From Pseudomonadota bacterium (GTDB lineage Bacteria; Bdellovibrionota_F; JAHFAK01; JBDREC01), in NCBI GenBank assembly GCA_043820105.1, contig JBDREC010000010.1, forward strand, positions 62,001 through 126,000: DNA of 64,000 nucleotides, given 5' to 3'. Shown one piece after another: positions 25,726 to 52,527 of the stretch; the first letter of the stretch is position 1; each line of letters opens with the position of its first letter. The position numbers and the translations under genes were made by a program. The notes under the pieces are model-generated. The model worked only from the letters and a program-made list of their open reading frames with translations, searched no databases and was not told the origin of the DNA.

Positions 25726-25814
25726 TTTTAAACATAAAACATTAACTTTTCAAAACCTTTCTATTTAAAATCATAGATCTTTTTATGTTTTTTAATCCTG
25801 GTACACTCTTTGCA
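25726..25814 (+). promoter_or_regulatory. Sigma54 promoter with a looser upstream box
   Basis: TGGTACACTCTTTGCA (GG-N10-GC) at 25799-25814; TTTTAAACATAAAACA starts 74 bp upstream of the GG. Confidence 0.65.
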
Positions 25815-25914
25815 AAAGATATTCTATGGGCCTGTCATGTATAGGGAAATGATGACAAGGGGGCCTTGAAGGAAGATATGTACTTGTATTTTTAAATTTC
25901 AAGGAGGTGGCCCT

Positions 25915-27246
25915 ATGAGTTTATGGAAAAAAATTGCCTTGCTGCTCATCACTTTAATTTTTTCATCTTTTATAATTACCAGCTGTGGTTTTGATTCAAC
26001 AAACGCTTCAGATCTTGAGATAGCTGATGATTCCATTGAAATTGAAAGCATAGTAGATGAAGGGATCATAATGGAAACAGGTGAAGCCTCAGAAGGTTAC
26101 GCTTTGGAGGCTGATAGCACAAAGGAATCTGGCTCTCAGGCGACTGAAAGCGAGTCTGAAAAAGATTATGAAAGAAATAATCCGAGTTTGTCTTTTCTGG
26201 ACAATTTGGAATTTTCAAAAAACAACTTCCTGGATATTGGTAACAAGCCAGGCAATAACAAAGACAGTGATGATAATGAAAGTAGTTTCGAAAATGGAAT
26301 TCTCGCTGGAAATAAACTGAATGATATTTCCCAAATTATAACAATAGATCTCATTTTTACAGGGGACAAATTCAAATGTTCTGCTCGTTCAAGTAAAACA
26401 TCAGGCGATTTTAAAGGTTCTGCATCCTTAGTTTATTTTTACATGGGTGATGATACTCTAACCACAATTGCCCAAGAAACTACAAAATTATCAAACGCAT
26501 TTACAGGTTATGATCATAAGGTTCTGATGTACGATGATGCCTCAACTGTTGCTTCAAAATTTCTCAGCGCAAGCGCCATAAATCAGGCCGACGTAATTTA
26601 CCATCCAACAAAGGACAATTTTTTTAACGCCATACTTGACACTGTTGAAAAGGGATATTTCCTTGATATTTATATAATCTCTCATGGTAACATTAAATCA
26701 AATGGGGTGCCCTATTTTGTTTCAGCAGATAACAACATAAAAGGAACAGATATTGCTTCAAAACTGGGCGATTATGGCTGCAATGAAATCCCCATCAGAA
26801 TGGTTTATACTGTTGCCTGTTATCAGTCAGCAATGAATTCCTATTGGACAAGTGTTGGTGCTAAAGCAGTTGTTGGATCACAATATATAAATTTTTATCC
26901 AAACCAATTTAATAAATTTGCTGAATCCTGGACACTCGGAAATAATTTTGAAACTGCTCTTGATAAAGCAAATACTGAAGGCTCAAGAACCGTTGCCCAA
27001 GCTTATATATATTACCTTGGCTTAAAATATGCAAATCAGGGAGATTGCGGTGCCTGGCCAAATGTTTTAGGTGAAAATGCCTGTGCAGAATGGTTCTTTA
27101 CTGAAGGTGGGCCCTATACTTTGGAAGATGATTATAATGACAATAAATCCGGAAAACAAAACATGACTATTTCGTCAAAAAAGATTATTACAGGCGATGA
27201 AACGATTAGCATTTCAAGTGAAGTAAGCTGGAATTTGCCAAACTAA
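25915..27246 (+). CDS. Lipoprotein with putative caspase/CHAT-fold (clan CD) cysteine peptidase domain
   Basis: AGGAGG RBS, lipobox ITSC, acidic linker, IYIISHG ... MVYTVAC ... VGAKAVVG. Confidence 0.65.
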   Translation: MSLWKKIALLLITLIFSSFIITSCGFDSTNASDLEIADDSIEIESIVDEGIIMETGEASEGYALEADSTKESGSQATESESEKDYERNNPSLSFLDNLEFSKNNFLDIGNKPGNNKDSDDNESSFENGILAGNKLNDISQIITIDLIFTGDKFKCSARSSKTSGDFKGSASLVYFYMGDDTLTTIAQETTKLSNAFTGYDHKVLMYDDASTVASKFLSASAINQADVIYHPTKDNFFNAILDTVEKGYFLDIYIISHGNIKSNGVPYFVSADNNIKGTDIASKLGDYGCNEIPIRMVYTVACYQSAMNSYWTSVGAKAVVGSQYINFYPNQFNKFAESWTLGNNFETALDKANTEGSRTVAQAYIYYLGLKYANQGDCGAWPNVLGENACAEWFFTEGGPYTLEDDYNDNKSGKQNMTISSKKIITGDETISISSEVSWNLPN

Positions 27247-27259
27247 TAAATTTCATATT

Positions 27260-28294
27260 TTAAACCTTTTCTCCAAAACCAAATGGCAAAAAAGAAAATC
27301 CAAAGCCAAAAATTGGTTGAAAATTCTCCTTATCAACTCCAAAGAAAAATGATGGTCTAAGCTTATGAAATTTTAAAACTGAGGGATATAAATTTAATCT
27401 AAATAAAAGATTATCAGTTCCATTAATTATTAAAGATGAAATTAGTGAATCATTTCTATCATAAAATATCCCAGCTGAATATATCATTTCAAGCTCCAAA
27501 GGAACAACCATTGATTGCCCAAAACCTGCTGATACATGCTTTTCTTTATCTATTTCATAACTCAATCCAAATAGCGTTGTCATACCAACATATGCAAATG
27601 GCGTAAGCTTTGACCCATAAACCTCAGGACGAATAGCATAATTCAAACCGATATTTCTAAATTTATTATATACAGGATCATAAATCGGTTGGTGATGCCA
27701 CATGGCTGGTTTAATATATTTTTTAACAAATTTACAAACAGGCTCAAAACTAAATAAAAGCATTCCAAGTGGATCAAAAATTAGTAAATCCGCGATCGGA
27801 TCAGAAGTTTCTGTGCTTCCTTTTTCTATACCTTCATTAATAAAACCCGAAGCATAAACTATCAAAACAGAAGCTAAATAACTATATGGCCTTTTAAAGC
27901 CGCGAGAATAAAGCCATTCCTCATTCATTTTGTATGAAATTCCATTTCCAAATAAATGCAGAAATAAATTAGGCACAACATTCACTGAAAGAAATTCATT
28001 TTGCAAAAACTGAGAAAAACCACCATCTGCTTCCAAAGAATTAAAAGGATGAAACACTTCATAAAAAACAGTTTCCATATGTTCATCAAAATCCTGAGTT
28101 GAAAAAGCCTCTGGAACCTGAGTTGTATCAAAGCCACCATTAATTATAAAGGTAAGTGGATTAAAATTAGCAGTAGATCCATAATCCAATTGATCATAAA
28201 AATAAAGCTTCTTCTCCAATTCCTCAGCAATTACAAATCTTGATAAAAATCCAAAAATAAATAATAAAAATATAATTGAATTTTTTTTTCCCAT
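27260..28294 (-). CDS. Hypothetical secreted / outer-membrane protein
   Basis: Signal peptide (VIA/EE); amphipathic beta-strand-like, aromatic-rich C-terminal half. Confidence 0.7.
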   Translation of the reverse strand: MGKKNSIIFLLFIFGFLSRFVIAEELEKKLYFYDQLDYGSTANFNPLTFIINGGFDTTQVPEAFSTQDFDEHMETVFYEVFHPFNSLEADGGFSQFLQNEFLSVNVVPNLFLHLFGNGISYKMNEEWLYSRGFKRPYSYLASVLIVYASGFINEGIEKGSTETSDPIADLLIFDPLGMLLFSFEPVCKFVKKYIKPAMWHHQPIYDPVYNKFRNIGLNYAIRPEVYGSKLTPFAYVGMTTLFGLSYEIDKEKHVSAGFGQSMVVPLELEMIYSAGIFYDRNDSLISSLIINGTDNLLFRLNLYPSVLKFHKLRPSFFFGVDKENFQPIFGFGFSFLPFGFGEKV

Positions 28295-28332
28295 AAAAGA
28301 TAATCTCACTTTAAATTACCAAATACAAAATG

Positions 28333-28381
28333 GAATACTAAATACTAAATACCGAATACTGAATACCGAATACCAAATACC
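28333..28381. repeat. (G/A)AATAC(C/T) heptamer tandem repeat (7 units)
   Basis: Ends directly at the AAGGAG RBS of the 28398 gene. Confidence 0.88.
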
Positions 28382-28397
28382 AAGGAGACCCTATACT

Positions 28398-29477: not shown

Positions 29478-29479
29478 AT

Positions 29480-29569: not shown

Positions 29570-29657
29570 TTTTGAAAAAAAGATTATTCACACCAACCAT
29601 GTAACACATTGTTTATATACAACTATTAACCAAGGCAATCCTGGCCTCTATCTTGCT
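29570..29657 (+). promoter_or_regulatory. Sigma54 promoter with conserved upstream box
   Basis: TTTTGAAAAAAAGA at 29570-29583; IHF-like site 29602-29614; TGGCCTCTATCTTGCT at 29642-29657. Confidence 0.7.
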
Positions 29658-29701: not shown

Positions 29702-31423
29702 ATGAAAAAAATTATTTTCTTGTTATTAATGTTGTCTGTCCTTTCTTTTGGCAAAGACAAATCCGTTCACACCATGCTAGAAATGCCAGAACTTAGCGAA
29801 GCATGCAAAATGCAAGGAGCGGATGCAAAGGTATTTTTCTTTACTCCAAAAGGAAAGTATATAAGACACAAGTCCTGGTCCCAAATTCTTAATTCTTTTG
29901 AAGGTAAAGACCCGCTTATGGCAAATGTGTGGAATGCCTGTAAAATGGAAGTATTGGAATATGCAGCGGTTCATTCTTTAAATTGGCATTATGATAGAGA
30001 TGATGAATGCAGTGCGGGGCTATGGAGCGTAGAAAAAAGACCTATAAACACAGAAACTCTTGAATGCAAATATGGACTGGTAGAAGGCACAAAAAAAACA
30101 GACTTTGATTATGTAAAAAGCGCCTTAAAAGATAGGCTTCCACTGGCATCAAATGAGATGTACGCTCAAGTTTTAAGTAAATTCTGTTCAAGTGAATACT
30201 ATGAACACTGCACGTTTGTTGAAGGTGGAATCGAATACCTGGAAAAAGTTCTATATGATCGGGTTGAAGCACTAAAATATTCCTTGAAAAATGATCTTCC
30301 TGAAGATTGTGACCTTTCAAAACCTTTAACTGGTGAATGCAAACTTATTGCAAGCAATCTAGTTGAACCAGAAGAAAATCTTTCCTTAATTGATACTGCC
30401 AATGAATTAATAGATAGCGCAGCTGAAGTACTTAACGATGAAGCCCCAATTGAAAAACCAACAATCGAAGATCCTGCGCCTGAATTTCAAGAAGATACTG
30501 ATACAAATCAAGAACCATTAATAATTCAAGAGCAAGAACCTCAAGTCGCAGCTGAACCCGAAGTTTTCTTACAAACAGACAATGAACTTGAAAAATCAAT
30601 AGTAGATAATTTTAAAGCCCAAATAAAAGAAACAATCGGAGCTTCTTCTTTCAAGCAATCAGAAGTTTTAGCTTTAAATATTGCAGCAATAAGATGCTTT
30701 GGAAGTGCCAAAACAACTGCAGCAGGTGATCCTTTAAAACAACAGATGCTTATAGACTATTGCATAGATGCTCTTTCTAATCTTGTAAATAAATATGCAG
30801 ATATAGTTGAACAAAACTCTTATTTGGAATCTGAAAAATATAATAGTCTTCTGACTAATTATTTCATCCTGTACCGAGAATCCGAGTTAAATAATAAATT
30901 TTATGACGAAGAGTATGTTTATATGATTGCAAAGGGCGTTAAATTTGCAAGCCACTATGCGGACCTTTATAAAAAGTTTGTTCAAACTGACCCCATGGTT
31001 ATTCTAAGATTCTTTTATCTTGTTCAAGATGGTAATCCACAGAGAATTGAACAGGCCGCTGATAAATTCTATTTTCAAGTTTTTTCAAGTCAAAAAAATC
31101 ACATTGAAAAGGCTTTTGCTTTTTCAGAGTTATACAAAAGGTTTTATATAGAACTAGAAGGTAATACCTTAATACAAATTAAAATGTCAGAACTCAAAAC
31201 TATTTTAGACATATTGGATAGAGTTGAATTTCGTACACATTGGAATAAAGGCTTCAGAACAGTTTTGGCTTTTTCCAAAACTGATGACCCAGGCCTTCCA
31301 TCCAAGATTACGATTAATAAAGATGGGGAAGGAATAATTTTATTAAGACAACAAGCCAGGCAAGATTTAGAGTATTATTTCCCTAGAGCATTAAAAAAAT
31401 TCCTTAAAAAGACAGGATATTAA
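29702..31423 (+). CDS. Secreted hypothetical protein (Cys-rich N-half, acidic Pro/Glu linker)
   Basis: GAGG RBS, signal peptide MKKIIFLLLMLSVLSFG. Confidence 0.8.
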   Translation: MKKIIFLLLMLSVLSFGKDKSVHTMLEMPELSEACKMQGADAKVFFFTPKGKYIRHKSWSQILNSFEGKDPLMANVWNACKMEVLEYAAVHSLNWHYDRDDECSAGLWSVEKRPINTETLECKYGLVEGTKKTDFDYVKSALKDRLPLASNEMYAQVLSKFCSSEYYEHCTFVEGGIEYLEKVLYDRVEALKYSLKNDLPEDCDLSKPLTGECKLIASNLVEPEENLSLIDTANELIDSAAEVLNDEAPIEKPTIEDPAPEFQEDTDTNQEPLIIQEQEPQVAAEPEVFLQTDNELEKSIVDNFKAQIKETIGASSFKQSEVLALNIAAIRCFGSAKTTAAGDPLKQQMLIDYCIDALSNLVNKYADIVEQNSYLESEKYNSLLTNYFILYRESELNNKFYDEEYVYMIAKGVKFASHYADLYKKFVQTDPMVILRFFYLVQDGNPQRIEQAADKFYFQVFSSQKNHIEKAFAFSELYKRFYIELEGNTLIQIKMSELKTILDILDRVEFRTHWNKGFRTVLAFSKTDDPGLPSKITINKDGEGIILLRQQARQDLEYYFPRALKKFLKKTGY

Positions 31424-31539: not shown

Positions 31540-32877
31540 ATGAAGCTTAAAACACGAAAACATATTATTCTTTTAATCTCAATAAGTTATTTCTTTATTT
31601 TCTCCTGTAGTTCAAACAATGATAACCAGGAAAGTCAGCAGGCAAGTGGAGCAAGTGATGAAATCACTGTAAATTTGTCAGGAACAATTGATACTTCTGG
31701 CATTATTACAAGAAGCGATCTAATAACCAGAACAGATATTATCACCAGATCCGATATCATCACCAGGTCAGACATAATATCCCCAATTGGATCACCTGGC
31801 ACTGGCATTATTCAAGCCAATATCCCCACAAATTTGCTTTTTTTAAAACAAAACAATGCTTTAAAACTAGATTCAAGTAATGCAAGTGATGCAGCGATTT
31901 TGCTTTTTATTGAAACACAAACAGCTGATGGCAATGAAACTGGTGCTTTATTACTTGCTTCTAATGGCGACTATAGTGGAACTTTCAGTCTTGCTGAAGG
32001 TGATGTTGTATCATTATCTGCTGGAATAGCATATGAAGAATATATAAGTAGCTCTGCTTATAATTTTGACAAGCAGATAAGCGATGGCCTGGTAATAACA
32101 ATTCTTGATAAAGATCAAAATGAAAGCTTTGAAATATCAGAAACAACAGCGTCAAGCATCAGTATTGACCTGGGAACAGCAAGCCTTTCTGGGAATTCTC
32201 TGGTTCTTGATAAATCCGTTACTGATGAAGTTCAAGGTCTATCAGTTTCAAATGAAAGCCCTGCTCAAACAAGCACTTTCAGCATAAAGTACATTGAAGA
32301 TGATATTGAAAGCACTATTATCTGCACAGCTAATAACATATCTAATAACTATTTTAATGGAAGTGATTCTTACGCAGTTTGTGCAAATACTACTTTATCT
32401 GGTGTCAACAATAATTTTTCAATATTATTTGAAACTACTCCTGATGAACTTGATGGTGTAATCTTTTTTGACATGGAAGTTCAAAGCACTTATTTTGCAA
32501 TTATTGGTTTTGATAGAAACACTTTTAGCACAAGCCTAGGAAGCAGTCAAACGCAAGAAAATCAAGTCCTTTCAGATTTTTCTTTTTCTGAAAACACAAC
32601 ATATCAAGTTATAGTATCTCATGATTATGATACATCTGAAAATAATATTCTTCGATCAATAGCAGTCTATGATGGTTCAATAAACATAAGTTCAAATACT
32701 GTTGCCGAAATCCCTCGTATTACTTTTTCTGAAAATATTTACATAGGAGCATCAAATGAAACAGGAAGCCCGGCCAGCTTTTTTAAAGGCATAATTTCCA
32801 ATGTAATAATTATTAATGAATCCATAGATACTGATGAAAATACATTTTTTTCCTACTTTCCTTCATTAAATCAATAA
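31540..32877 (+). CDS. Ser/Thr-rich lipoprotein with IITRSD hexapeptide repeats and a LamG/ConA-like C-terminal domain
   Basis: Lipobox FIFSC; FNGSDSY ... IYIGAS ... FFKGIISNVII resembles LamG-type lectin domains. Confidence 0.7.
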   Translation: MKLKTRKHIILLISISYFFIFSCSSNNDNQESQQASGASDEITVNLSGTIDTSGIITRSDLITRTDIITRSDIITRSDIISPIGSPGTGIIQANIPTNLLFLKQNNALKLDSSNASDAAILLFIETQTADGNETGALLLASNGDYSGTFSLAEGDVVSLSAGIAYEEYISSSAYNFDKQISDGLVITILDKDQNESFEISETTASSISIDLGTASLSGNSLVLDKSVTDEVQGLSVSNESPAQTSTFSIKYIEDDIESTIICTANNISNNYFNGSDSYAVCANTTLSGVNNNFSILFETTPDELDGVIFFDMEVQSTYFAIIGFDRNTFSTSLGSSQTQENQVLSDFSFSENTTYQVIVSHDYDTSENNILRSIAVYDGSINISSNTVAEIPRITFSENIYIGASNETGSPASFFKGIISNVIIINESIDTDENTFFSYFPSLNQ

Positions 32878-32884
32878 ACACTGT

Positions 32885-32898
32885 TTTTGAAAAAAAGA
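32885..32898 (+). promoter_or_regulatory. Copy of the conserved box upstream of the giant activator gene
   Basis: TTTTGAAAAAAAGA; no canonical GG-N10-GC at the usual spacing; TTGAAA-16-TATAAT at 32964-32991. Confidence 0.45.
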
Positions 32899-33033
32899 CC
32901 GCTCAGAAAGCCAACATAACAACTCGTTATCATTATATTTATAAATATTGCACGCTTAATTGTTTGAAAAATTCATTTCTTTTTATATAATAAACAAGTT
33001 TTTTATCAAATAAATTAAATTGGTAGCTAAAAC

Positions 33034-36000
33034 ATGAAAAATAGTCTTAGTCAGTATATTGACTTACTTTTGAAAAAAAGAAAAATTTCGGAAAATTCTG
33101 TTAATATTTATAATAAAAAGCTATTGGATTTCGTAGCATTTCTTGGTGAAAATAAAAAACCACAGGAACTAACAAAAGAAATTATTTTGGACTTTATGAA
33201 TAATGTTAAAAAAAAGGGATATTCAGTTCAGACCTATAACCTTTATGTATCCTCCCTAAAACTCTTCCTCAGGCACTTAAATGAAACCCTTGAAATTGAA
33301 GACTTTTCAAAAACAATAAAAAACGAGAAAAAGCAGGATGTCAGTCAAGTATCAAAAAAGGACCTTGAACTTTTTATTGAAAAAACAGAAAGCATTGAAG
33401 ATAATAGAAAAACTTTTTTTCTTCTTTATATCTTACTTGGAATGAGTACAGACAATATTGCCTTATTAAAAAAACAGGACCTAAAGCTTGAAGATAGCAG
33501 AATTGGCATTCGGTATCCTGACAATAAAAAGGCTGGTTATAAATTTTATCCAATATCAGTGGAAAATTTTGGTTTTAGGTTAAAAACTGAACTAGAAGAA
33601 TTAGCTGAATCATCAAAAAAATATCTTTTTGAAACCTCAAAATTAAAACCTCTTACAAAATCAAATTTCAATTATATTTTTAATAAATACAAGCACCTTT
33701 TACCAAAAGAATGTGACACTTTATTAAAACTGAAAAACGACAATATCCTAATAAAATGTGAAATAGACATTGAAGATGGGCTGGAAACTATTATTGAAAA
33801 AAGGTATACCCTTAAAAGACCATTGGGAAAGGGAACTTATAATCAAGTATATCTAGCATATGATGAAGAAAAAAAACAAGATGTTGCCCTTAAGCTTCTT
33901 GACAGTAAAAAAGCAACTCCAAAAACAATCAGTGCCTTTAAAGAAGAATTTAAAATTCTAAAAAAATTAAACCATCCGCAAATTCCCAAGGTATATGAAT
34001 TCGCATATGTAAAAGAAACAAATGCCTTCTACTTTTCAATGGAATATATTGATCTTGATGAATCCTCAAAATATGTAAACAAGCTCTCAACTAGTCAGGC
34101 ATGTATAATCCTGCATAGGGTTCTTGATCTATTAGACTATATTTCAGCAAAGAATATTATTCATTATGATATTAACCCTTCAAATATTATGCTAAAAGAA
34201 AGAGACCATGGCCACACTGATGTTAAACTTATAGATTTTGGTTTAGCAAGCTTAGATGAAAAAGATGTCCATGGCACAAATTATTTTATTGCTCCAGAAA
34301 TAATTCAAACTAAAAAAAGCTGCCCTTCATCTGATTTATATTCTCTTGGGCTTACTATTTATTATTTACTAACATCTAAGTTCCCGTTTTCCACAGCCTC
34401 TTTTGAAGACTATCTAAAAGACATTAAAACTAATACTTTTATAACAATCTCAAGTGCATTGGGAAATTTTGATGCTGATTTAGAAAAAATTATTCTCAAA
34501 ATGATCGCCTATAAAAATAACGATAGATATGAATCTCCAAAAGAGGCTCTTAAAGATATTGATGCATATATAAAAAAATGTTTAGTAGAATCACCAAATG
34601 CTCAAGCTGGTCAAAAACTTGTTATACCTGATTTTTTTGGACGAGAAAAACAATTAGAAATTCTTGAAAACAACTTTAATATCACTTTTCAAGATGATCA
34701 GACCAAACACGAAGTTAACATTAACCTAATATCAGGTGAGCCTTATATCGGAAAAAAGCGATTAATCGATGAAATTGCAAATAAAGCAAATCTTTCTGAA
34801 ATAGAAATAATAAGAATAGAACTTACTAAATCAAACCCACTTAATTCTGTTATTGAATATTTATATGAACATAAAAAGATAAAAAAAGATGAGTTTAAAA
34901 CGATATTGTCAGGTGAGGCAGAATACAAATCATCAATTATCAAAAAAGTTTCTGAAATCTTTTTAAGGCATGTCTCCACAAAGAAAACTCTTCTTATTCT
35001 TGAGAAATTAGAGTTTGCAGATAAAGATATATTAATCTTTATAAGATTCTTTTTAAATGATCTAAAGGCACATAACTCCAAATTACTATTTGTACTTTCA
35101 ATTAATTCTGATTCTTCAAAGCAAGAAAAAATATTGCCAATATTAGAAAAGAAAAGCTCTTCTTTTGCAAACATAAGCATAATAGAATTGCGTCGTTTTT
35201 CCAAAGAAGAAACCGAGAACTATCTCAAAACAACTTTTAATTCAGAAATTGAACCTGAACTTCTTGATTATATTTATAATAGCAGCGGAGGAAACCCAGG
35301 ATATATCGCGAGCTTATTAATAAACCTTAATGAAAATGCTCACCTTTCAATAAAAAATAAAATAACAGGCTTAAATACAAGTATAAGCTTTTCACAAACA
35401 GAGGACCTTGTTAAAATTGGCTTTGAAAGATTAAAGCAACTATCTAAAATTCAAATAATTATTATTTATATTATTGCTAACTATGAGTTTAAAATTACAG
35501 CAGATACTTTATTTATTTTATTATCAAGGCTTGAAAATATTTCAAGAGCAGACTTTTTACAGATAATTGAATCCTTAATAAAAAGAAGCTATATCAAGCT
35601 TAAACAAAATCAAGATACAAGTTCAAATGAAGCTCATTCAAGAACAATCAGCATTATAGCTTTAGCAGACATTACTTTAGAACAAGCAATTGAGCTAGCA
35701 ATAAATAAAAAGGATGCTCAACTTGCAAACCTTATCATAGCAGAAGACCTAGAAGAAACATCAATCCTTGACAACAAGTATAAAGAAGTTATCTCAAATC
35801 ATTATTTAAAAGCATCGAACTATCAAAAGGCTGTTGCTTATTTAGAAGATATTGCGAAAGAATATTTAGAAAAGGGCTTATTAGATAAAGCTATTGAAAA
35901 ATATGAAAGCATTCTACTCTCAATCAAGTCCTTTGATATAAAAATTAAGGAAGAATACAAACTAAAAGCATTTATTAATTTGAGTCGTGCAAACTTCCTC

Positions 36001-44500: not shown

Positions 44501-45287
44501 ATCTTTTTCATCAATAGGAAAACCTAAAGGCCGAAAAACTGAAAACGAAGATGGCATAGGAGCTGTAGTTAGACTTGAAAACGGAGTTGAATCCCTGGAC
44601 ATTGTTTCAATTGATGCAATGGGAAAATATCAAGAAGCACGGCTTGCTATGCAAATAGCTCTTAGTGAATCAACTTCTCAACTGGCCTCAAACAAAACAA
44701 GCTTTGAAATCTGGAAATCAGTTCTTGAGCAATATGATCTAAGATTTGATCCCACCCTTCCAGACAGGCATTTAACTGGCGTTTGTCTAGTGCATGGCAG
44801 ATTTCAGGCAAGTCCAGATGGCAGTAAAACTCTTGATTTATCTTGGTTTGGAGATACCGGTGCAGTCATCTTTCGACCTGACCCTGCTAATCCGAAAAAA
44901 GCAAAAATTCTTTTTGAAACCATAGACAGTTCAATTGAAAATGCCTTAGCTACGGGAGAAATAAAGCTTTCTGATTTACCTGTGAAAAATCGTGAAAATT
45001 TAATAAGAAACGCTGTATTGAATCCTCTTTCTCTAGCCCATGGAATAAGAGGAATAACTTTTCATAGAATATATGATCTTCAAAAAGGAGATATTGCTAT
45101 TTTCGGATCAGATGGTTTAAGAAAATTTTTATCAAGTGCCGAAGTCTGGACACTGATTAGAGACTGCAAAAGCCCAGAAGAAATGATCTATATTTTACGA
45201 TCAGCGGTTTCAAGAACCATGCAATTTGAAGTCTTTTTAAATGGACATGGAGACAATGTTAACATCGGAGCAGTTATAGTAAATTAA
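41502..45287 (+). CDS. Large secreted protein with central hydrophobic helices and C-terminal PP2C/PPM-like phosphatase domain
   Basis: N-terminal hydrophobic signal; ENEDG, SIDAMG, WFGDT, FGSDGL, GDNVN match the order of PPM motifs. Confidence 0.75.
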   Translation: MLLKKNLKNLSFIQIILLFLSFMYLLKPCYCSNFTDISDEIISKASRLGIEGDDLLSRLEKVVILEAKISQLKMRLKKIKKWNEVKSEFNKYSYLTYKEELIRIITEIDEATYKDFYERLDNAISWLAILEMNLRLMCPPWIKSYNFESMAEEFIKTLELTQIASDFFEEKKQKYLEEAIDSKEQATLNNDSFHTKYYSGIIEYIKGDFYLSYTFLKEAKKIIDDNNVNEDEIPLGTIEILQNQLITLESYFLQEVRSSLNRFLLYAMNMDSIESNHIENGRNLSPGKRTFISKEIFHHLNSENSDLFVEYPKISFNDEPIVVEKVRHILDEVKKYDSYYDSWKTQINKANVNIIEIAQKACKGNKKVVTKAILELVRVNLGLIIESESTWSKISTTTKKLSIGSLKASVETLKDILQKQISKEEQKLPIDKKRELWFSSKVDANKFFEPYEASEKASVLRAYKSAYAADIYSDNIFSLVVNDLSAQGFEETDYVTKQHIITAIALAQKVKKTKLFQDTYHFSVNTGKSALKLAKAIAIEGITFYIGGIFAKGSISLGLKLLSKYRLIKASSIVRKQSLVKAIAFSAINLPVYAFFFTGAKIPFDFMIEQKPFINISHEFPKYYKKYFEMFLIGGVIGFGFTHSLGKAMHSSSLFANNSTLIHATKLSRQSGKLYIEKALVSELERYGKRVKEILFIGAQATGFELFHVLKEKIKTGYWNFDDFGKHLLSNFVNFYALHMSTATIARLVEGPKESLKLSREIEIPEIEVRAEQNPVDVLFEAESQRALGQNGVDAAPFLIEGTRPGYKNRTTDDALIPPDYAQAKPKDNDTSTLAYAEKARAKLGLQRKIADLNDKETLILEPQKDGSFIEVAKQDPNNSILITRQNKFKFTLINNSNLYLFIKYKDNWIPIEKGIKIDILSNDLIALAKRGSVEPVLAEALIISNALARNYKPSLKISSRHGYNEGARVQERGFGQIFTVDGNEGTFQANTQPGTFNSRSFSSIGKPKGRKTENEDGIGAVVRLENGVESLDIVSIDAMGKYQEARLAMQIALSESTSQLASNKTSFEIWKSVLEQYDLRFDPTLPDRHLTGVCLVHGRFQASPDGSKTLDLSWFGDTGAVIFRPDPANPKKAKILFETIDSSIENALATGEIKLSDLPVKNRENLIRNAVLNPLSLAHGIRGITFHRIYDLQKGDIAIFGSDGLRKFLSSAEVWTLIRDCKSPEEMIYILRSAVSRTMQFEVFLNGHGDNVNIGAVIVN

Positions 45288-45459: not shown

Positions 45460-47409
45460 TCACTTTTTTAATTTTCCCTTGATCCTTCCAGAACTACGCC
45501 TGCGAACTGGATCTTCTTTAACATTAACTCTGCCTGCCTTCACCTGGCTATAATCAGGCTGTTTTGTACTTCCAAATAATCCTTCCAAAGCATAAGCACC
45601 TCTGGGACTATCAAATATTCCTCTCTCAGAAATCCCTATTATTCTGGCAAGATCTGACTTTGCAGGTCTTGCTTCAGAACGTTTGGGAAAACCAATTCTT
45701 TGCTCAAACATTAGCATTTCTTTATTTGCTTTTACTTTTGATAAACTATAGCGGCGTTCATATTCCTGCAATTGAAAGTCAGTATATAGCTCCAGGTCAA
45801 AAGCATGAAACAATTGAAGGTCTCTTAGTTCACGCACAAACTCCACCAAGTATTGTGCTTTGCCTAACTGTCTTCTTAAGGTATCTTGATCTGTTAATGA
45901 AAACTCGATTTCGTTTATAGTTGACTCTACAAAGCTGGCTACAAATATAAGATCATGTATTCTGGTTTCCTGGTAAACACTTATTTTACTGATGTCGCCT
46001 TTAAATTCCAAGCCATAATTTTCAACGTGCTTAACAACTTCAATTTTTATTTGTATTTCCAAATCTTTTAATTCTGAATTTAATTTGTCTTTTATTTGCA
46101 TAAGGGCAGCTTCTTCATAAGGCAGATTCATATCATCCGGATGCGTAAGCTTATCTAATTCACCATCAGCACTTTGCTTTATTTTTTCAAGCAGTTCAGA
46201 GCCTTTTAATACTGAAAGGTATAAATCAATAAGCTCCCTTTTTTTATTAGCCTGACCCATATGAGAAAGCACTGACATTAATTCTTTTATGAATTGCTTG
46301 GTTTCAGAGTTATTCTCAATTTCATAAGCCTCTTCCAATTCCTCTAAAACCTCATTCTCACAACATTCAAAGATAAAAAGCATTATAAAACTAAGCTTTC
46401 TCACCTTATAACTTTCACTTTGAATGCCATTATCTAAAAGATCATCAATCAGTTCTCTTTTCAGACTATCATCTGATCCCACCATCTCAATATACTCTCC
46501 AGTTAATAGTGCCCTGTATCTTTGAAAAGCCAGTTCATGAGAATTGGGATGGGGATTTAAGATTAAAACTTCTAATGCCTGTGGGCTTCTATATTTTGGA
46601 TTAGTTAGTTCTTTGGCAATAAGAACTCTTAAAGCTTCTCCTCCTTTTGAATATAAGGTCAAAAGCCTTTTAGTCTTTGCCTCATATCTACGCTCACTTT
46701 TAAGCATAGCCTCCAAGTAAGGAACCAATATAGCATCTGAGGAAAAACTACGATTAATCACCCTGCTTTCTAAAAATAACAAGCCATAATCCCCTCCATA
46801 TAAGGACATATAAACAAAGGCTGCCTCAAAGGCTCCTTTTGAACCAGCCGAAAGGAACATTTCCGCATTTTCAATAATAGCACCTTCAGGCACATACCAT
46901 GCCCTGGATGCTTGCAAATATTCATATGTTTTTTTAAAATCCCTGGCTCTGTCTAAATCTTCACAATAAGCAGGATTGCTTCTAATCTCTTTTCTAAAAG
47001 GCACTTTTCCTGGAGGGGTTAATCTTTTTATATCTCCTAATTGCAATATATCTCTAACTCTTTCTAAGCCTTGATCAAGAAACCTTTCCAATTCCTCTGG
47101 AGTTTCAAACTCAATATCATCCATTATAATTCTGTTAAAACGCTCTTCTAGTTCAAATTTAAGCTCAAACAACCTTCCAATTACTAATATATTCCTTGTG
47201 CTCACTTCAGGGCTGTTTAAATATTCTCCTCTGCTCTGCCTTATTTCTTCCCTGATAATTACATCATAATAGTTATAATTTAAGGTTTGTAATAAATCAC
47301 TAATTTCCTTTAAAACAGCTTCCTTTTTTATTTGCAGCTGGTCAGGCATTGTGCTGGCATTTGCAAAAGTGAAGCTCAAAAATATACAAATAATTATTAA
47401 TTTTCTCAT
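45460..47409 (-). CDS. Secreted alpha-helical hypothetical protein
   Basis: Signal peptide MRKLIIICIFLSFTFANA; HEAT-like and coiled-coil segments; basic C-tail. Confidence 0.75.
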   Translation of the reverse strand: MRKLIIICIFLSFTFANASTMPDQLQIKKEAVLKEISDLLQTLNYNYYDVIIREEIRQSRGEYLNSPEVSTRNILVIGRLFELKFELEERFNRIIMDDIEFETPEELERFLDQGLERVRDILQLGDIKRLTPPGKVPFRKEIRSNPAYCEDLDRARDFKKTYEYLQASRAWYVPEGAIIENAEMFLSAGSKGAFEAAFVYMSLYGGDYGLLFLESRVINRSFSSDAILVPYLEAMLKSERRYEAKTKRLLTLYSKGGEALRVLIAKELTNPKYRSPQALEVLILNPHPNSHELAFQRYRALLTGEYIEMVGSDDSLKRELIDDLLDNGIQSESYKVRKLSFIMLFIFECCENEVLEELEEAYEIENNSETKQFIKELMSVLSHMGQANKKRELIDLYLSVLKGSELLEKIKQSADGELDKLTHPDDMNLPYEEAALMQIKDKLNSELKDLEIQIKIEVVKHVENYGLEFKGDISKISVYQETRIHDLIFVASFVESTINEIEFSLTDQDTLRRQLGKAQYLVEFVRELRDLQLFHAFDLELYTDFQLQEYERRYSLSKVKANKEMLMFEQRIGFPKRSEARPAKSDLARIIGISERGIFDSPRGAYALEGLFGSTKQPDYSQVKAGRVNVKEDPVRRRSSGRIKGKLKK

Positions 47410-47474: not shown

Positions 47475-47561
47475 TTCATTTTTAATGCCATTATTTGTAG
47501 TCTAAATAAATCTAAAAATTCATAAGGTTGGCTCAAAGAAAAAAGTTTCTTTTTTTCAAAA
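47475..47561 (-). promoter_or_regulatory. Sigma54-like promoter (GG-N10-GA) with conserved upstream box
   Basis: TTTTGAAAAAAAGA 47561-47548; TGGCATTAAAAATGAA 47490-47475. Confidence 0.55.
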
Positions 47562-47625: not shown

Positions 47626-48876
47626 TTATTTTGTATCTGCTGCAGTTTTTCCTGCCAAATATCCTGTTGACCAGGCGATTTGCAGATTGTAGCCGCCGGT
47701 TGGGCCATCCAGGTCAAGTATTTCACCTGCTAAAAATAAATTATCAATCCGTTTGGACCGCATTGTTTTTGGATCAACTTCTTTCAAATTAAGCCCCCCG
47801 GATGTAATGATTGCCTTATCAAAGCCATCCAGGGCTTTTACGTTCAACCTTAAATCCTTCAAAAGGTTTAATAGTTTCTTTCTTTCTTTTTTTGAAATCT
47901 CTGAAACCTTTTTATTTTCATCTATGCAAGTGAGCTGAATCATAATAGGAATTAACCTCTGGGGAAGCAGTTTGTTTAAACAGTTTTTAAACTGCTTGGC
48001 CTTGAATTCTTGAAAATCTCTTTGCATTCTTTTGTCTAATTTCTCTAATTCTAATGCAGGTTTAAAGTCAATAGATAGCTCGCAATCACCTGCTTCTAAA
48101 ACTTCGCCAACTGTTTTACTTAAGTCTAAAACGATTGGACCACTTAAGCCACTGTCTGTAAAAAGTGCTTCTCCAAACCTTGAGTCTTTCTTTTTTTTAT
48201 TTTGATAAACTGATATTTCCACATTTTTAAGACTCAAGCCCTCAAGCTCCCCAATCCATTTTTCCTTACAAAGAACAGGAACTAAAGCAGGTCTTGGTTT
48301 TACAATTGAGTGTTCTAACTTTTCTAGTAATCTATATCCATCACCAGAAGAACCAGTAGCAGGATAAGACATGCCTCCAGTGGCCAAAATAAAATTCTTA
48401 GCTCTAAGCACTTCTTTATTTGTTCCTAATTCTAAAATCTTATTTTCTTTTAGCTTAAAACTTTTTACTAAGCTCTTAGTTCTAATTTCTACCTTCTTTT
48501 TTCTTAAAACTTCCAATAATGTTTTCAACACATCTTGCGACCTATCACTTTCCGGAAAAACCCTATTCCCTCTTTCAATTTTAGTCTTAAGCCCCTTTCT
48601 TTCAAAGAACTCAATGGTATCTTGAACTGAAAAGGCATTTAACGCTGGAAACAGAAACTTGCCAGACTTCCCATAAACCTGCACAAGCTCTTTATTATCA
48701 AAAGAGGCATTTGTAATATTGCATCGTCCTTTGCCTGTTATTAAAAGCTTCCTGCCTGGTCTGTCATTTTTTTCTAAAATACAAACCTTTGCACCTTTTG
48801 AAGAAGCAGCAATAGCAGCCATAATTCCAGCAGGGCCTGCTCCAATTACAATTATGTCATATGTTTTTTCTTTCAT
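47626..48876 (-). CDS. HI0933/YhiN/BaiN family flavoprotein
   Basis: GAGPAG, GRKLLITGKGRCNITN, ATGGMSYPATGSSGDG, GEALFT..GLSGP, GPTGGYNLQ. Confidence 0.92.
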   Translation of the reverse strand: MKEKTYDIIVIGAGPAGIMAAIAASSKGAKVCILEKNDRPGRKLLITGKGRCNITNASFDNKELVQVYGKSGKFLFPALNAFSVQDTIEFFERKGLKTKIERGNRVFPESDRSQDVLKTLLEVLRKKKVEIRTKSLVKSFKLKENKILELGTNKEVLRAKNFILATGGMSYPATGSSGDGYRLLEKLEHSIVKPRPALVPVLCKEKWIGELEGLSLKNVEISVYQNKKKKDSRFGEALFTDSGLSGPIVLDLSKTVGEVLEAGDCELSIDFKPALELEKLDKRMQRDFQEFKAKQFKNCLNKLLPQRLIPIMIQLTCIDENKKVSEISKKERKKLLNLLKDLRLNVKALDGFDKAIITSGGLNLKEVDPKTMRSKRIDNLFLAGEILDLDGPTGGYNLQIAWSTGYLAGKTAADTK

Positions 48877-48920: not shown

Positions 48921-51900
48921 TTAGATATTCCAATCATCTCCGAAAATTCCACCGAAAGGTCCAATTGTTGTGATTGTATCAGCAAAATCAATATAACCAT
49001 CCTGATTTAAATCCTCTAAAAGACCATCTCCATCCAGGTCATCTTGAATATCATTAAGATCTAAATCTAAAGTTCCTTCAAAAGAAAGATCTCCAATGAG
49101 ATCGAATTCTAAATAATTAAGATCCTCATTTTCTAACAAATCATAAATCCCGTTGGCATCGGAATCCTCCAGTGACAAGGTATCAGGAGCCCCTGAAGAA
49201 TCAACTTCAAATTCAATCAATGGATAACTTGCACTTGTATCACTTGTTTCAAAAATATTGTCATCAATCCAAGAATCATCCCCATAGGGGCTTGCATTAT
49301 ATCCATTATCTAAATAAAAATTACTCGGGCTATTGTTTAAGTATAAATTACTAAATGAATATACATTATCAGACATATCTGCATTTGAGTTTGGATAAGT
49401 TGAATCAAAGGCTGGTTTTAAATTATCATAAAAAATATTGTTAGCTAAAATCAGTAAAGAATCAAAAACGCTAAATTTATTAATTAATCCTCCCTCATAA
49501 AGAGTATCATTATTGTAAAATAAATTATTCAAAAATATTATTTCTGTTTCTGTTGAGCTTGTGTTATATAATCTATCAAACCTAATCAATTTGTTATTTC
49601 CACCGCTATTACCAGCAATTATATTATTGGACATAGTAAAATTTTCTACATTTTTGAATTTAAGAACTTCAAACTGACCATGGTTGCCAATAATGAGATT
49701 GTTAGTGAACGTAAGATTTGCATCTGGTCTATCTATTTGAATAGCCCCTGCACTTCTTTCAGATGAATTTCTAGCTATTATATTATTTCTTATGTTTATA
49801 ATACTATTTCCATTGTGGCCTATGGACATGCCTCCACCCAAACTGCTAACACTATTATCCCTAATTATATTATTTTCTATATTAAGTTCAAAATTATTAC
49901 CGCCAATACCAATTCCCCCTTCCAGCATAGCTACATTATTTTGAAGAATATTATTTTTAATAGTAATATTTCCCCAGCTATTATTAGAAAAAAGATATAA
50001 AGATATAGCTCCTCTTCTGCTATCACTATTTTCAATAATGTTATTTTCTATCACAATGTTTGTGTTATCTGCTTTACCGTAAAAATGAATTCCTCCGGCC
50101 ACATCATTTAAAGAGCTGCCATTTCTCATGGTAAAACCCGCAACTTTAAGGCTTTCTCCTCTACCTTGATAATTAACATATAAAGCGGTATCTATTCCAA
50201 GAGTGTCAATAATTGTATAATCTCTACCTTTTTGAGACATTAGCGAAAAGCCATTTGAAGCAACAAGTCTTTCATTATAAGTATAGGGAGCAACAACAAT
50301 ACAGTCATCTTCATTAGAATTATCCATTGCTCCTTGTATGGTAGCAAAAATTTCCAGATTATCAATAGCATCGCTCATTGGATCAACAAGCAAATCATAT
50401 GTAACACTTGAGTCAGAATCATCGCAATCTGACATGTTATCGACATATCCTGTTGGAATACTTGAATTGTCAGAGCAATTAATTACTATTTCATTGTGAT
50501 AATCTCCATATCCGTCATTATCATTATCAATATAAGCAAAAACATTGTTATCAATTTCGCCATCGCAATTATTATCTTTAGTGTCGCAAAGCTCTGGATG
50601 GGTAGGATTAATTTCGTTGTCCGAATCTTCGCAATCACCTCCCAAGAGAACAACATTATCAGGCAAAGGACAAATTCCTTGATATTCTTCATCACCATAA
50701 CCGTCACCGTCATTGTCATAATAGGCAATGGTATCTTCATCTATTTCACCATCACAATCATTATCTTGACCATCACAAACTTCCACACCATAACTATTTA
50801 TTAAATGATTGCTATCATTACAATCATCGCCATTTGAAATATATCCATTTAAAACCTTACAGGAAATAACCAGATTTTCAGCTCCTCCTTCTCCATCTCC
50901 ATCATCATCCCAGTAATTATAGATTTCCGGAAATCCTTCATTTACAACACCATCACAATTATTATCAAAGGAATCACAAATCTCTGGAGCACCTGGATAA
51001 ACACTATCATTCCAGTCTGTACAATCCCAATCATTTTCAACATACCCTTCTGGAACAGTACAAGCATCAATTGAAAAATGATCAGGACGACCAAAACCAT
51101 CTCCATCTGCATCGCGATAATAGGTATTAATAGGCAACCCTTCGTCAACCTGCCCATCACAATTATTGTCAAAAGAGTCACAAATCTCTATAGCATCGGG
51201 ATTAATCTCAACTTCAAAATCATCGCAATCACCTGCAACTAACACATAATTCAAGGGAGCTTCACACATATTAACAAAAACAGTTGAATTACCGAAACCA
51301 TCTCCATCTGTATCGAGGTAGTAAGTGTTAACAATAAAACCTTCATCTACATTTGAATCACAATTATTATCAATTGTGTCACAAGCTTCCAAAGCACTTG
51401 GGTTAATTGAAGCATCTGTATCATTACAGTCTAAATTATTATCAACAAAACCAGCTGGAATATTACAGGCAGATCCACTTAAAGAAGAGCTACCAAAACC
51501 ATCACCGTCTTCGTCAATATAAAAAGTAATATAAGCGCCCTCATCAATTTCATCATTACAATTATTATCAATATTATCACAAAGCTCCAGGTTACCTGGA
51601 TATCGGTTTGGATCATTATCATCGCAGTCACCCTCTTCAGGGCTAACACCATCTAAATCATCATCAATTTTAATAATTAATTCATCTTCTGTTGTGGTGC
51701 TTGCTTCTTCCACACCAGCAACATCTTCTGGAGGATTGTTATTTTGAATAGAATTAGTAGGATTTGGAGTTGGAAAGGAATCTGCAGTTTCATGGGATTC
51801 AATTTCCCCATCTAATATTGGGGCTTCTTGATTACTTTCCTGCTCAATTGAAATCTCGTCAATTGCTTCATCACTTGCCTTGCTTTCGCTTCCACAAGAA

Positions 51901-51965
51901 AGCAGAAGATATTGTGAAAGAATAAATATAAAAAATATAACAATTCTTTTTTTCAAGTTTTTCAT
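48921..51965 (-). CDS. Lipoprotein with MopE-like (putative metal-binding) Cys/Asp repeats and a right-handed beta-helix
   Basis: GGAGG RBS before MKNLKK; lipobox LLSC; about seven DCDD..P.A.E.CD..DNNCDG.VDEG units with YxDxDGDGFG; Asn/Ile-rich beta-helix (IENNII, NNIIA). Confidence 0.85.
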   Translation of the reverse strand: MKNLKKRIVIFFIFILSQYLLLSCGSESKASDEAIDEISIEQESNQEAPILDGEIESHETADSFPTPNPTNSIQNNNPPEDVAGVEEASTTTEDELIIKIDDDLDGVSPEEGDCDDNDPNRYPGNLELCDNIDNNCNDEIDEGAYITFYIDEDGDGFGSSSLSGSACNIPAGFVDNNLDCNDTDASINPSALEACDTIDNNCDSNVDEGFIVNTYYLDTDGDGFGNSTVFVNMCEAPLNYVLVAGDCDDFEVEINPDAIEICDSFDNNCDGQVDEGLPINTYYRDADGDGFGRPDHFSIDACTVPEGYVENDWDCTDWNDSVYPGAPEICDSFDNNCDGVVNEGFPEIYNYWDDDGDGEGGAENLVISCKVLNGYISNGDDCNDSNHLINSYGVEVCDGQDNDCDGEIDEDTIAYYDNDGDGYGDEEYQGICPLPDNVVLLGGDCEDSDNEINPTHPELCDTKDNNCDGEIDNNVFAYIDNDNDGYGDYHNEIVINCSDNSSIPTGYVDNMSDCDDSDSSVTYDLLVDPMSDAIDNLEIFATIQGAMDNSNEDDCIVVAPYTYNERLVASNGFSLMSQKGRDYTIIDTLGIDTALYVNYQGRGESLKVAGFTMRNGSSLNDVAGGIHFYGKADNTNIVIENNIIENSDSRRGAISLYLFSNNSWGNITIKNNILQNNVAMLEGGIGIGGNNFELNIENNIIRDNSVSSLGGGMSIGHNGNSIINIRNNIIARNSSERSAGAIQIDRPDANLTFTNNLIIGNHGQFEVLKFKNVENFTMSNNIIAGNSGGNNKLIRFDRLYNTSSTETEIIFLNNLFYNNDTLYEGGLINKFSVFDSLLILANNIFYDNLKPAFDSTYPNSNADMSDNVYSFSNLYLNNSPSNFYLDNGYNASPYGDDSWIDDNIFETSDTSASYPLIEFEVDSSGAPDTLSLEDSDANGIYDLLENEDLNYLEFDLIGDLSFEGTLDLDLNDIQDDLDGDGLLEDLNQDGYIDFADTITTIGPFGGIFGDDWNI

Positions 51966-52009
51966 TTCTCCTCCAGAAAAATATTTTGTGTTATTCATAA
52001 GCATATTAA

Positions 52010-52099
52010 TGCAAGCAGCATACCAGAACTCACTTGGCAAGATAAGACTATAATATCAATACAATACAATGAGAAGGAGTGTTTCTCTTTTATTCAAAA
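52010..52099 (-). promoter_or_regulatory. Sigma54 promoter with conserved upstream box
   Basis: TTTTGAATAAAAGA 52099-52086; TGGTATGCTGCTTGCA 52025-52010. Confidence 0.75.
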
Positions 52100-52160
52100 A
52101 AGGGATTTCAATTAGAATTGTAAAAAAAATTAAACTGCAAAAAATAATAATCTTATTCAT
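52056..52160 (-). pseudogene. Signal-peptide remnant (34 aa) of a deleted secreted-protein gene
   Basis: GGAG-caccct-ATG; MNKIIIFCSLIFFTILIEIPFLNKRETLLLIVLY*; the second half runs over the next promoter box. Confidence 0.5.
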
Positions 52161-52198
52161 AGGGTGCTCCATCTAATTATTGTATCTCTATACAATAT

Positions 52199-52286
52199 AT
52201 CAAATATCGCGCCAGGACTTTGTAAAATTATTTTACTTTTATTTCATACAGATATAGCAAGACAAGTGAATTTCTTTTTTTCAAAA
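52199..52286 (-). promoter_or_regulatory. Sigma54-like promoter (GG-N10-GA) with conserved upstream box
   Basis: TTTTGAAAAAAAGA 52286-52273; TGGCGCGATATTTGAT 52214-52199. Confidence 0.6.
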
Positions 52287-52359
52287 CATAGAAAATAATA
52301 TAGAAATTGGATTTTTTGAGACATAAAAATCTCAATAATTAAGGAAATTAGAAAAAAAC

Positions 52360-52395
52360 AAAAAAAAAGCCTAAGTCGAAATTTTCGACCCAGGC
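52360..52395 (-). terminator. Rho-independent terminator
   Basis: GCCUGGGUCGAA-AAU-UUCGACUUAGGC 12-bp stem (2 G-U pairs, complete only on the minus strand) followed by a U-run. Confidence 0.85.
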
Positions 52396-52428
52396 AGTTT
52401 GCTTTGGGGGACATATTATGAAACTATT
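52360..52428 (-). ncRNA. Candidate sigma54-dependent small RNA (~70 nt)
   Basis: Lies between the sigma54-like promoter at 52454-52439 and an intrinsic terminator; no RBS-led ORF; contains UUUCAUAAUAUGUCCCCC. Confidence 0.55.
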
Positions 52429-52438
52429 AAGATACTAT

Positions 52439-52527
52439 TTCAACTTGTGTGCCATTTTAGCAGCATATGTGTTTTTCTTTATTTTCAACACCTTATATGG
52501 TCCGCTTGAAAATTCTTTTTTTCAAAA
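52439..52527 (-). promoter_or_regulatory. Sigma54-like promoter with conserved upstream box
   Basis: TTTTGAAAAAAAGA 52527-52514; IHF-like TTTCAACACCTTA 52483-52495; TGGCACACAAGTTGAA 52454-52439. Confidence 0.7.

Follow-up and report, generated by a model that had tools for sequence, protein, structure and literature searches.

A candidate local sigma-54 regulon with one repeated promoter design, a phased upstream box, and a putative enhancer-binding protein gene in its midst

Which protein reads a short box that recurs at a fixed distance upstream of sigma-54-type promoters, and what would it switch on? The question is raised by contig JBDREC010000010.1 of an uncultured bacterium, positions 62,001 to 126,000 of the forward strand. 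This 64,000-nt stretch, the whole of the DNA analyzed, is called the window here, and all box and promoter counts refer to it alone. A previous sequence-only reading had listed nine such promoters, each with the same box upstream, and had assigned them to one activator, possibly the product of the open reading frame (ORF) starting at 33034. We refer to a box and its promoter as a cassette. We found that the box–promoter pattern is real and far beyond chance, and that ORF 33034 is, judging from its domains, a 1965-aa sigma-54 enhancer-binding protein (EBP).

Upon re-reading of the sites, all nine pairs of box and promoter coordinates proved correct. The distance from the box start to the first G of the promoter GG is 74, 73, 73, 74, and 73 bp on the plus strand and 72, 75, 73, and 74 bp on the minus strand, so that it stays within 72–75 bp with a mean of 73.4 bp, equal to 7.0 helical turns at 10.5 bp per turn. 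The box consensus, TTTTRAAWAAAASA, is 14 bp long and asymmetric, and always has one orientation relative to the promoter. It consists of T4 followed by an A-rich run, with non-A/T positions retained (R at 5, S at 13, A at 14). This consensus, as originally proposed, is matched exactly 11 times in the window, compared with 0.45 expected from 100 dinucleotide shuffles (highest shuffle count, 2), and seven of the 11 copies are identical in sequence. When one mismatch was allowed, 18 boxes were found versus 6.5 expected, which places the seven additional copies at chance level. GG-N10-G(C/A) lies 72–75 bp from the start of eight of the 11 exact boxes. The composite pattern (box, 56–62 bases, GG-N10-G[A/C]) occurs eight times, against 0.01 expected, and the comparison of the spacing with shuffled DNA, which had been named as a check, gave no cassette in 200 dinucleotide shuffles. 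The remaining box, at 25726, has three mismatches. Boxes of this quality occur at 434 of ~128,000 positions, and a loose box is expected at one of four fixed positions ~1.3% of the time; the 25726 box is therefore only suggestive. No second box recurred at a constant offset, whether direct or inverted, and no other shared upstream motif was found across the cassettes.

The promoters were compared with TGGCAC-N5-TTGCW, the extended sigma-54 consensus. Eight of the nine have at most two mismatches, and the 47489 promoter has three; that of the 25726 cassette, TGGTACACTCTTTGCA, is among the best despite its weak box. As described before, six are of the GG-N10-GC type and three of the GG-N10-GA type. 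Window-wide, 47 sites fit the consensus with at most two mismatches, versus 28 expected; ten of these lie outside the listed genes, and eight of the ten are the claimed promoters. All nine promoters are co-oriented with a downstream gene or the candidate small RNA within ~300 bp. The predicted 5' leaders of eight promoters measure 28–90 nt, and the ninth promoter is followed by a predicted terminated transcript of ~70 nt.

A third element, resembling a site for integration host factor (IHF), lies between box and promoter. In the form YAANNNNTTGATW, the element begins 32 or 33 bp from the box start, corresponding to 41–42 bp ahead of the first GG base, and is always on the same strand. The three sites noticed earlier (29602, 39009, and 52483) are all present, and two further phased sites were found, one in the 52099 cassette and, more weakly, one in the 47561 cassette. 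Mismatches to YAANNNNTTGATW number zero at 39009, one each at 29602, 52066–52054, and 52495–52483, and two at 47530–47518. A site with at most one mismatch is thus present in four of the nine cassettes and one with at most two in five, while the other four have 3–4 mismatches. The background frequency of sites with at most one mismatch is 0.18% per position; their presence in four of the nine cassettes at either of two fixed places gives a P of ~2e-8, or ~2e-6 after a 90-fold correction for post hoc choice of position. Counted from the predicted start, the box occupies -98 to -85 and the IHF-like site -66 to -54, followed by the -24/-12 elements.

Recent duplication of the cassettes was considered as the origin of this regularity and ruled out. 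The spacers are 33% identical versus 29% when shuffled (maximum 47%), and spacers, upstream flanks, and leaders together are at background identity (30–35%, maximum 55%), so the cassettes are not recent copies. The pattern reads as three short elements, box, IHF-like site, and promoter, held in register while the intervening DNA drifted. The elements are listed below.

25726–25739, plus strand: loose box TTTTAAACATAAAA, three mismatches, 74 bp to GG, ~1.3% chance at a fixed distance
25799–25814, plus strand: promoter TGGTACACTCTTTGCA, one mismatch, predicted start ~25825, ahead of lipoprotein gene 25915–27246
29570–29583, plus strand: exact box TTTTGAAAAAAAGA, 73 bp to GG
29602–29614, plus strand: IHF-like site TAACACATTGTTT, box+32, one mismatch to YAANNNNTTGATW
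29642–29657, plus strand: promoter TGGCCTCTATCTTGCT (consensus fit), ahead of exported protein 29702–31423 and perhaps also LamG lipoprotein 31540–32877
32885–32898, plus strand: exact box with no sigma-54 promoter, 8 bp past the stop of the upstream gene
32964–32969 and 32986–32991, plus strand: TTGAAA and TATAAT, separated by N16, sigma-70-like promoter of the activator gene (hexamer match)
33034–38931, plus strand: gene for the putative EBP, 1965 aa (domain searches)
33068–33081, plus strand: exact box inside an ORF, codons 12–16 (LLKKR) of 33034
38977–38990, plus strand: exact box TTTTAAATAAAAGA, 73 bp to GG
39009–39021, plus strand: IHF-like site CAACATATTGATT, box+32, no mismatch
39049–39064, plus strand: promoter TGGAACAATATTTGCA (consensus fit), ahead of lipoprotein gene 39112–40167
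40239–40252, plus strand: exact box, 74 bp to GG
40312–40327, plus strand: promoter TGGCATTTAATTTGCT (consensus fit), ahead of exported protein 40427–41362
41374–41387, plus strand: exact box TTTTGAAAAAAACA, 73 bp to GG
41446–41461, plus strand: promoter AGGCATGTTCTTTGCA (consensus fit), ahead of 1261-aa exported protein 41502–45287
47548–47561, minus strand: exact box, 72 bp to GG
47518–47530, minus strand: IHF-like site, two mismatches to YAANNNNTTGATW
47475–47490, minus strand: weakest promoter TGGCATTAAAAATGAA, GA type, three mismatches, ahead of exported protein 45460–47409
52514–52527, minus strand: exact box, 74 bp to GG, first of three tandem cassettes
52483–52495, minus strand: IHF-like site TAAGGTGTTGAAA, box+32, one mismatch
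52439–52454, minus strand: promoter TGGCACACAAGTTGAA, GA type, one mismatch
52443–52415, minus strand: sigma-70-like pair TTGAAA-17-CATAAT, overlapping the -12 region of this GA-type promoter
52360–52428, minus strand: candidate small RNA, ~70 nt (terminator scan and folding)
52273–52286, minus strand: exact box, 73 bp to GG, second tandem cassette
52199–52214, minus strand: promoter TGGCGCGATATTTGAT (consensus fit), GA type
52203–52176, minus strand: sigma-70-like pair TTGATA-16-AATAAT, overlapping the -12 region of this GA-type promoter
52056–52160, minus strand: 34-codon ORF, signal-peptide-like, GGAG ahead of ATG (ORF reading)
52086–52099, minus strand: exact box TTTTGAATAAAAGA, 75 bp to GG, third tandem cassette
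52054–52066, minus strand: IHF-like site TATTGTATTGATA, box+33, one mismatch
52010–52025, minus strand: promoter TGGTATGCTGCTTGCA (consensus fit), ahead of MopE-repeat lipoprotein gene 48921–51965 and perhaps also flavoprotein gene 47626–48876
60406–60419, minus strand: exact box inside another ORF

The window contains no EBP gene other than ORF 33034. In its product, Pfam recognized Phage_int_SAM_1 (residues 6–82), Pkinase (258–505), AAA_16, TPR/MalT-like repeats, and GAF (1458–1607), followed in the C-terminal part by Sigma54_activat (PF00158, 1664–1831, E 1.5e-68), AAA_lid_14, and HTH_8 (1920–1960, E 1.1e-9). The NCBIfam model nifA scored 330 bits, below its cut-off of 529. In the AAA+ domain, Walker A (GESGTGKE), Walker B (FLDEIGE), and the arginine finger (RERKEDI) are intact, and the sigma-54-contact loop reads GAFTDA, not GAFTGA (GSFTDA in one relative), with the F and T retained. 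GAFTDA is among the natural variants described as expected to keep function in the EBPs of Desulfovibrio vulgaris (PMC4641369). The kinase has the lysine (VALK), the catalytic Asp, the Asn, and the DFG and APE motifs; because the catalytic loop, HYDINPSN, lacks the Arg and the loop Lys, kinase activity is uncertain.

The N-terminal part of the protein resembles a tyrosine recombinase. Residues 1–250 align to archaeal XerA (4a8e) with an E value of 2.8e-5, and their model (pLDDT 95) is a two-lobed recombinase-like module made up of the core-binding domain and the first part of the catalytic domain. Foldseek searches with this model retrieved XerA (E 1.7e-8) and DNA-bound lambda Int (TM 0.68). 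None of the five family members retains the first catalytic Arg, which has given way to Ser, Asn, or Thr (in ORF 33034, GMSTDN versus GLRxSE), and the module stops before the region of the HxxR motif and the Tyr, with the kinase beginning at residue 258. Because Arg-I is replaced and the HxxR/Tyr region is missing, the Xer-like module cannot be a recombinase and is a catalytically dead recombinase clamp. Since this clamp fold and the HTH_8 domain are both present, ORF 33034 has two possible DNA readers.

A search of 5.8 billion proteins with ORF 33034 gave 502 matches, and the best 120 were inspected. Among these, ~25 proteins of 1400–2100 aa share the kinase-to-HTH order, and the integrase-like domain (PF02899) is listed for P0001–P0003 only. 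An exhaustive search of 1.84 billion representative proteins with residues 1–250 yielded 48 proteins at E ≤0.001. Only five of them, query included, reach E 1e-10, and all five are 1661–1965 aa long with the module at the N-terminus; the other 43 are at E 3e-7 or worse and are mostly 140–370 aa long like ordinary recombinases, with a few of ~580 aa and one of 4090 aa. Pfam found Sigma54_activat and Phage_int_SAM_1 in all four relatives and Pkinase in three. The activator family is very small: five clusters among the 1.84 billion representatives. When plasmids were searched with activator residues 1–520 using tblastn, 383 records matched the kinase part only, at ~30% identity, and none was an orthologue. 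No paper on EBPs fused to a kinase or a recombinase turned up in the literature searches, nor anything specific on sigma-54 in Bdellovibrio.

The nine cassettes flank ORF 33034 on both sides, all within 20 kb. Moreover, the exact box at 32885 has its center ~106 bp before the transcription start predicted for the activator gene's sigma-70-like promoter, TTGAAA-N16-TATAAT. An exact box ahead of its own promoter suggests that the activator gene may be autoregulated, the 33034 protein also binding at its own gene. The inference of the sequence-only reading that one activator, possibly 33034, serves all the promoters gains support, with 33034 as the likely candidate, from the promoter fit, the enhancer position of the box, the IHF-like site, the EBP domains, the box at the gene's own promoter, and the enrichment of signal peptides among the downstream genes, as far as sequence can tell.

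We therefore favor, as the probable though far from certain arrangement, a local sigma-54 regulon with one repeated promoter design, activated by the 33034 EBP at the box through IHF-bend looping. Sigma-54 RNA polymerase would sit on the -24/-12 elements of the nine promoters, unable to open them alone. The 33034 EBP would dock on the asymmetric 14-bp box at about -98 to -85, which precedes the -24 GG by seven helical turns. Between them, at roughly -66 to -54, IHF-type bending would fold the short spacer and bring the AAA+ ring to sigma-54 for ATP-driven promoter opening. Gating of this opening in response to a signal would fall to the activator's kinase, STAND/TPR, and GAF modules; prey or host contact, put forward in the sequence-only reading, is a purely speculative candidate for that signal. 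The output would be seven transcription units, encoding eight exported proteins or lipoproteins, the 34-codon ORF, and the ~70-nt small RNA, whereas the activator gene itself would be read from its sigma-70-type promoter with the box upstream. This mechanism is well supported by the sequence and unproven.

Several observations weigh against it. The link between the box and 33034 consists of proximity and one box. Known EBPs typically occupy at least two sites of dyad symmetry, whereas each cassette has a single asymmetric one. The 47489 promoter is weak (three mismatches, GA type). All three GA-type promoters deviate from GC at -12, and two of them overlap sigma-70-like hexamers; such hexamers are near chance frequency in this DNA (77 found, 63 expected), and these two promoters may be dual sigma-54/sigma-70 promoters or chance overlaps in AT-rich DNA. 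No rpoN, ihfA, or ihfB gene is present within the 64 kb. Three exact boxes, at 32885 (+), 33068 (+), and 60419 (-), which had escaped the sequence-only reading, have no sigma-54 promoter 72–75 bp further on; the latter two lie within coding sequence and may be chance matches, because Lys-rich coding sequence can yield the box word. In addition, the window encodes another five to seven exported proteins that have no cassette. Finally, a scan of a genome-contig collection (596 Gb) for box-N57-60-TGG-N9-TGM, a pattern too loose for a collection of this size, returned at least 118 matches, which, apart from one threefold repeat, are scattered singletons from unrelated phyla. Among the matches listed, none of 118 has at most one mismatch to TGGCAC-N5-TTGCW and 15 have two, and neither a convincing cassette nor the window's own genome is among them.

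Two side observations concern box-like and promoter-like sequences elsewhere. Within the MopE gene, the signal-peptide codons for LKKR contain a two-mismatch copy of the box (~51956–51942); Lys/Arg-rich codons can mimic the box. Among the collection matches listed, three from one contig of a Desulfobacterales metagenome-assembled genome (MAG; L079, L080, and L082) share an identical promoter-like 16-mer and box, which points to a repeated element of that genome, unrelated to the window cassettes.

Other explanations of the pattern were weighed against activation by ORF 33034. The promoters and their enhancer could be genuine while the box is read by an EBP encoded elsewhere, 33034 regulating something else. 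A single asymmetric site is indeed unlike the typical dimer site of a Fis-type HTH, and EBP-rich genomes are described as common in related lineages (PMC12316311; PMC4641369). However, 33034 is the sole EBP gene in the 64 kb, stands amid nine cassettes, and has an exact box before its own promoter, and in a context analysis EBP genes commonly adjoin their targets (PMC3162934); we consider a distant EBP unlikely. A further proposal, which we regard as improbable, holds that the box is not an activator site and has another role, structural or otherwise, for example as an intrinsically bent T4/A7 tract aiding looping, an UP-like element, a nucleoid-protein site, or the tail of the terminator of the upstream gene. 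The T4 and A-rich make-up of the box would suit such roles, and the boxes at 32885, 41374, 38977, 40239, and 29570 start 8–93 bp past an upstream stop. This is countered by the retention of the non-A/T positions and the identity of seven of the 11 copies, and by a terminator scan of 38.5–53.5 kb, in which no G+C-rich hairpin lay ahead of the boxes, save the terminator of the small RNA. Furthermore, sigma-54 promoters require an EBP, and the box is the only shared motif found upstream.

It is also conceivable, but in our judgment very improbable, that the fixed spacing records descent from a duplicated promoter module or that the whole pattern is chance in AT-rich DNA. Three tandem cassettes within 500 bp (52527–52010) and a genome of 68% A+T would favor such an origin, but shuffled sequences yield no cassettes, and the spacers, flanks, and leaders are at background identity. 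Any duplication must be old, because only the box, the IHF-like site, and the promoter are kept in register.

The identity of the DNA reader is the most interesting point of the system. We raise, as a tentative and rather doubtful suggestion, that the dead Xer-like clamp at the N-terminus, and not the Fis-type HTH, reads the asymmetric box, binding a single 14-bp site in a single orientation much as a recombinase monomer occupies one arm of its target. Reading by the clamp would explain the single non-palindromic site, the strict orientation, and the rigid seven-turn register. If true, it would define a new EBP class, in which a domesticated tyrosine-recombinase clamp is fused to a sigma-54 ATPase gated by kinase, STAND, and GAF modules, with a group of exported proteins and a small RNA under its control.

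What the promoters would express was examined next to the claim that every target is an uncharacterized secreted protein or lipoprotein, a signal-peptide remnant, or the candidate small RNA. The downstream genes are 25915 (lipoprotein), 29702, 39112 (lipoprotein), 40427, 41502, 45460, and 48921–51965 (MopE-repeat lipoprotein); the LamG lipoprotein gene 31540 is possibly an eighth target, and has its own sigma-70-like TTTACA-N17-TATAAT. By a crude rule made for this analysis (basic N-terminus, 11-residue hydrophobic stretch, no acidic residue), signal peptides are present in eight of the eight downstream proteins, 31540 counted, versus five of 34 other window genes (Fisher P 1e-5), and two more non-target proteins qualify by eye. 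Two points qualify the claim: the separate sigma-70-like promoter of 31540, and an HI0933-type cytoplasmic flavoprotein gene (47626–48876) that starts 44 bp past the MopE gene on the same strand and may be co-transcribed with it. Pattern searches of the window found no cassette before housekeeping genes, in agreement with what had been noted. Pfam and NCBIfam recognized only Laminin_G_3 and MopE repeats among the targets, which are not paralogues of one another. Atlas look-ups for 41502 and 29702 gave no usable match, and 39112 has only seven relatives, at 33–40% identity.

The first of the three tandem cassettes precedes the candidate small RNA (52428–52360), whose unpaired 5' portion carries a CCCCC run and is followed by a 12-bp hairpin (52395–52369) and T9. 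Its predicted fold has an energy of -20.6 kcal/mol (z -3.7). A search of Rfam gave no match at the gathering score, the best weak match being NsiR1 (E 0.23). The second tandem cassette is followed by the 34-codon ORF (52160–52056), which runs over the box and the IHF-like site of the third. As no terminator was predicted between this ORF and the MopE gene, the latter may have two tandem promoters.

Compared with known systems, the order of upstream activator sequence, IHF site, and promoter is textbook sigma-54 design. Bacterial EBPs are described as binding ~100–150 bp upstream, with IHF-assisted looping (PMC7057263), and sigma-54 as commonly controlling the cell exterior (PMC3162934). Three features are unusual: a lone asymmetric site that always points the same way, spacing fixed at seven turns over nine promoters, and the make-up of the activator. 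A literature search on fixed-distance sigma-54 enhancers found nothing specific. The nifH paradigm, reportedly from work of Hoover et al. in 1990, combines a NifA-type sigma-54 promoter with an IHF bend and an activator sequence upstream. The cassettes are like it in having an activator site ~100 bp upstream, an IHF-like site between, and a -24/-12 promoter, and ORF 33034, like NifA, has a GAF domain ahead of AAA+ and a C-terminal HTH. The NifA site is the dyad TGT-N10-ACA. Whereas NifA sites lie at variable distance, the window has one asymmetric 14-mer at a rigid 72–75 bp; the targets are exported proteins, not nitrogenase, and the activator is four times larger.

The sigma-54 regulons of Desulfovibrio vulgaris offer a second comparison. 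One-component EBPs with GAFTGA variants, including GAFTDA, are described there (Kazakov et al. 2015, PMC4641369), with the majority of promoters no more than 100 nt from the EBP site and with targets including non-coding RNAs and cell-exterior functions (PMC4641369). The window resembles these regulons in its variant loop, near EBP site, exterior targets, and small RNA (PMC4641369). It differs in that no EBP with a kinase or recombinase-like module is described for these regulons, and in that spacing there is a distribution and not one set distance (PMC4641369). The small RNAs GlmY and GlmZ are described as being under the control of GlrR, IHF, and sigma-54 (PMC3045617). Like them, the candidate small RNA of the window stands behind a sigma-54-type promoter with an activator site and an IHF-like site. 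GlrR is a response regulator, and its targets have several activator sites; unlike it, the window activator is of a different class, and its small RNA has no Rfam family.

Individual parts of ORF 33034 also have counterparts. Giant Pkinase-AAA_16-TPR-GAF-Sigma54 proteins, known as database entries from uncultured Myxococcota-like and other bacteria, share its domain order and, unlike it, have no N-terminal recombinase-like module (P0001–P0003 excepted, among the best 120 of 502). Tyrosine recombinases such as XerA, lambda Int, and Cre share the fold of residues 1–250; unlike them, the module of ORF 33034 is without the catalytic set R-K-H-R-H/W-Y.

Sigma-54 enhancers are the bacterial model of activation at a distance, normally with several dyad sites at loosely constrained distances. 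Nine promoters with one phased asymmetric site and an IHF-like site would provide a natural series for the short-loop geometry of activation. In the activator family, a recombinase-derived clamp, a STAND module, and a kinase of eukaryote-like type are combined with a sigma-54 ATPase, and the system would offer a handle on eight exported proteins of no known family and a new small RNA in an uncultured lineage.

A further sigma-54-type element lies just outside the cassette block. At 24860–24875 (minus strand), at the head of a ComEC/Rec2-like gene in the gap to hemD, the strong element TGGCATCTAAATTGCA has one mismatch. No box lies upstream of it, the best box-like match having three mismatches at 109 bp, and it may be the target of another activator or a chance match.

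The window has a G+C content of 32% (68% A+T) and is ~90% coding, and the cassette block (25.7–52.5 kb) has the same G+C as its flanks. The housekeeping genes are of proteobacterial look (RhlE, ElyC, PgsA, HemD, QueF, carbamate kinase, and OppF). The best matches of the RhlE helicase, MAG proteins labeled Pseudomonadota, Deltaproteobacteria, or 'bacterium', are only 68–75% identical, and the source organism belongs to an uncultured lineage. A tRNA-Glu(CTC) gene at 53157–53228 (minus strand) lies ~630 bp from the outermost cassette, so the block ends beside a tRNA gene. Among genes without a cassette, 13430–16438 (plus strand) encodes a lipoprotein of 1002 aa that contains a metallohydrolase domain of the CehA/McbA family (NCBIfam, 92 bits). 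A gene at 19100–20200 (minus strand), adjoining pgsA, encodes a secretion ATPase of the TadA/VirB11 family; no further pilus or secretion genes were recognized alongside. Beyond the block, 53824–54996 (plus strand) encodes a dCache-HAMP membrane protein in which no output domain was recognized, and a HEAT-repeat gene at 54989–56140 (minus strand) is convergent with it, their 3' ends overlapping by 8 bp.

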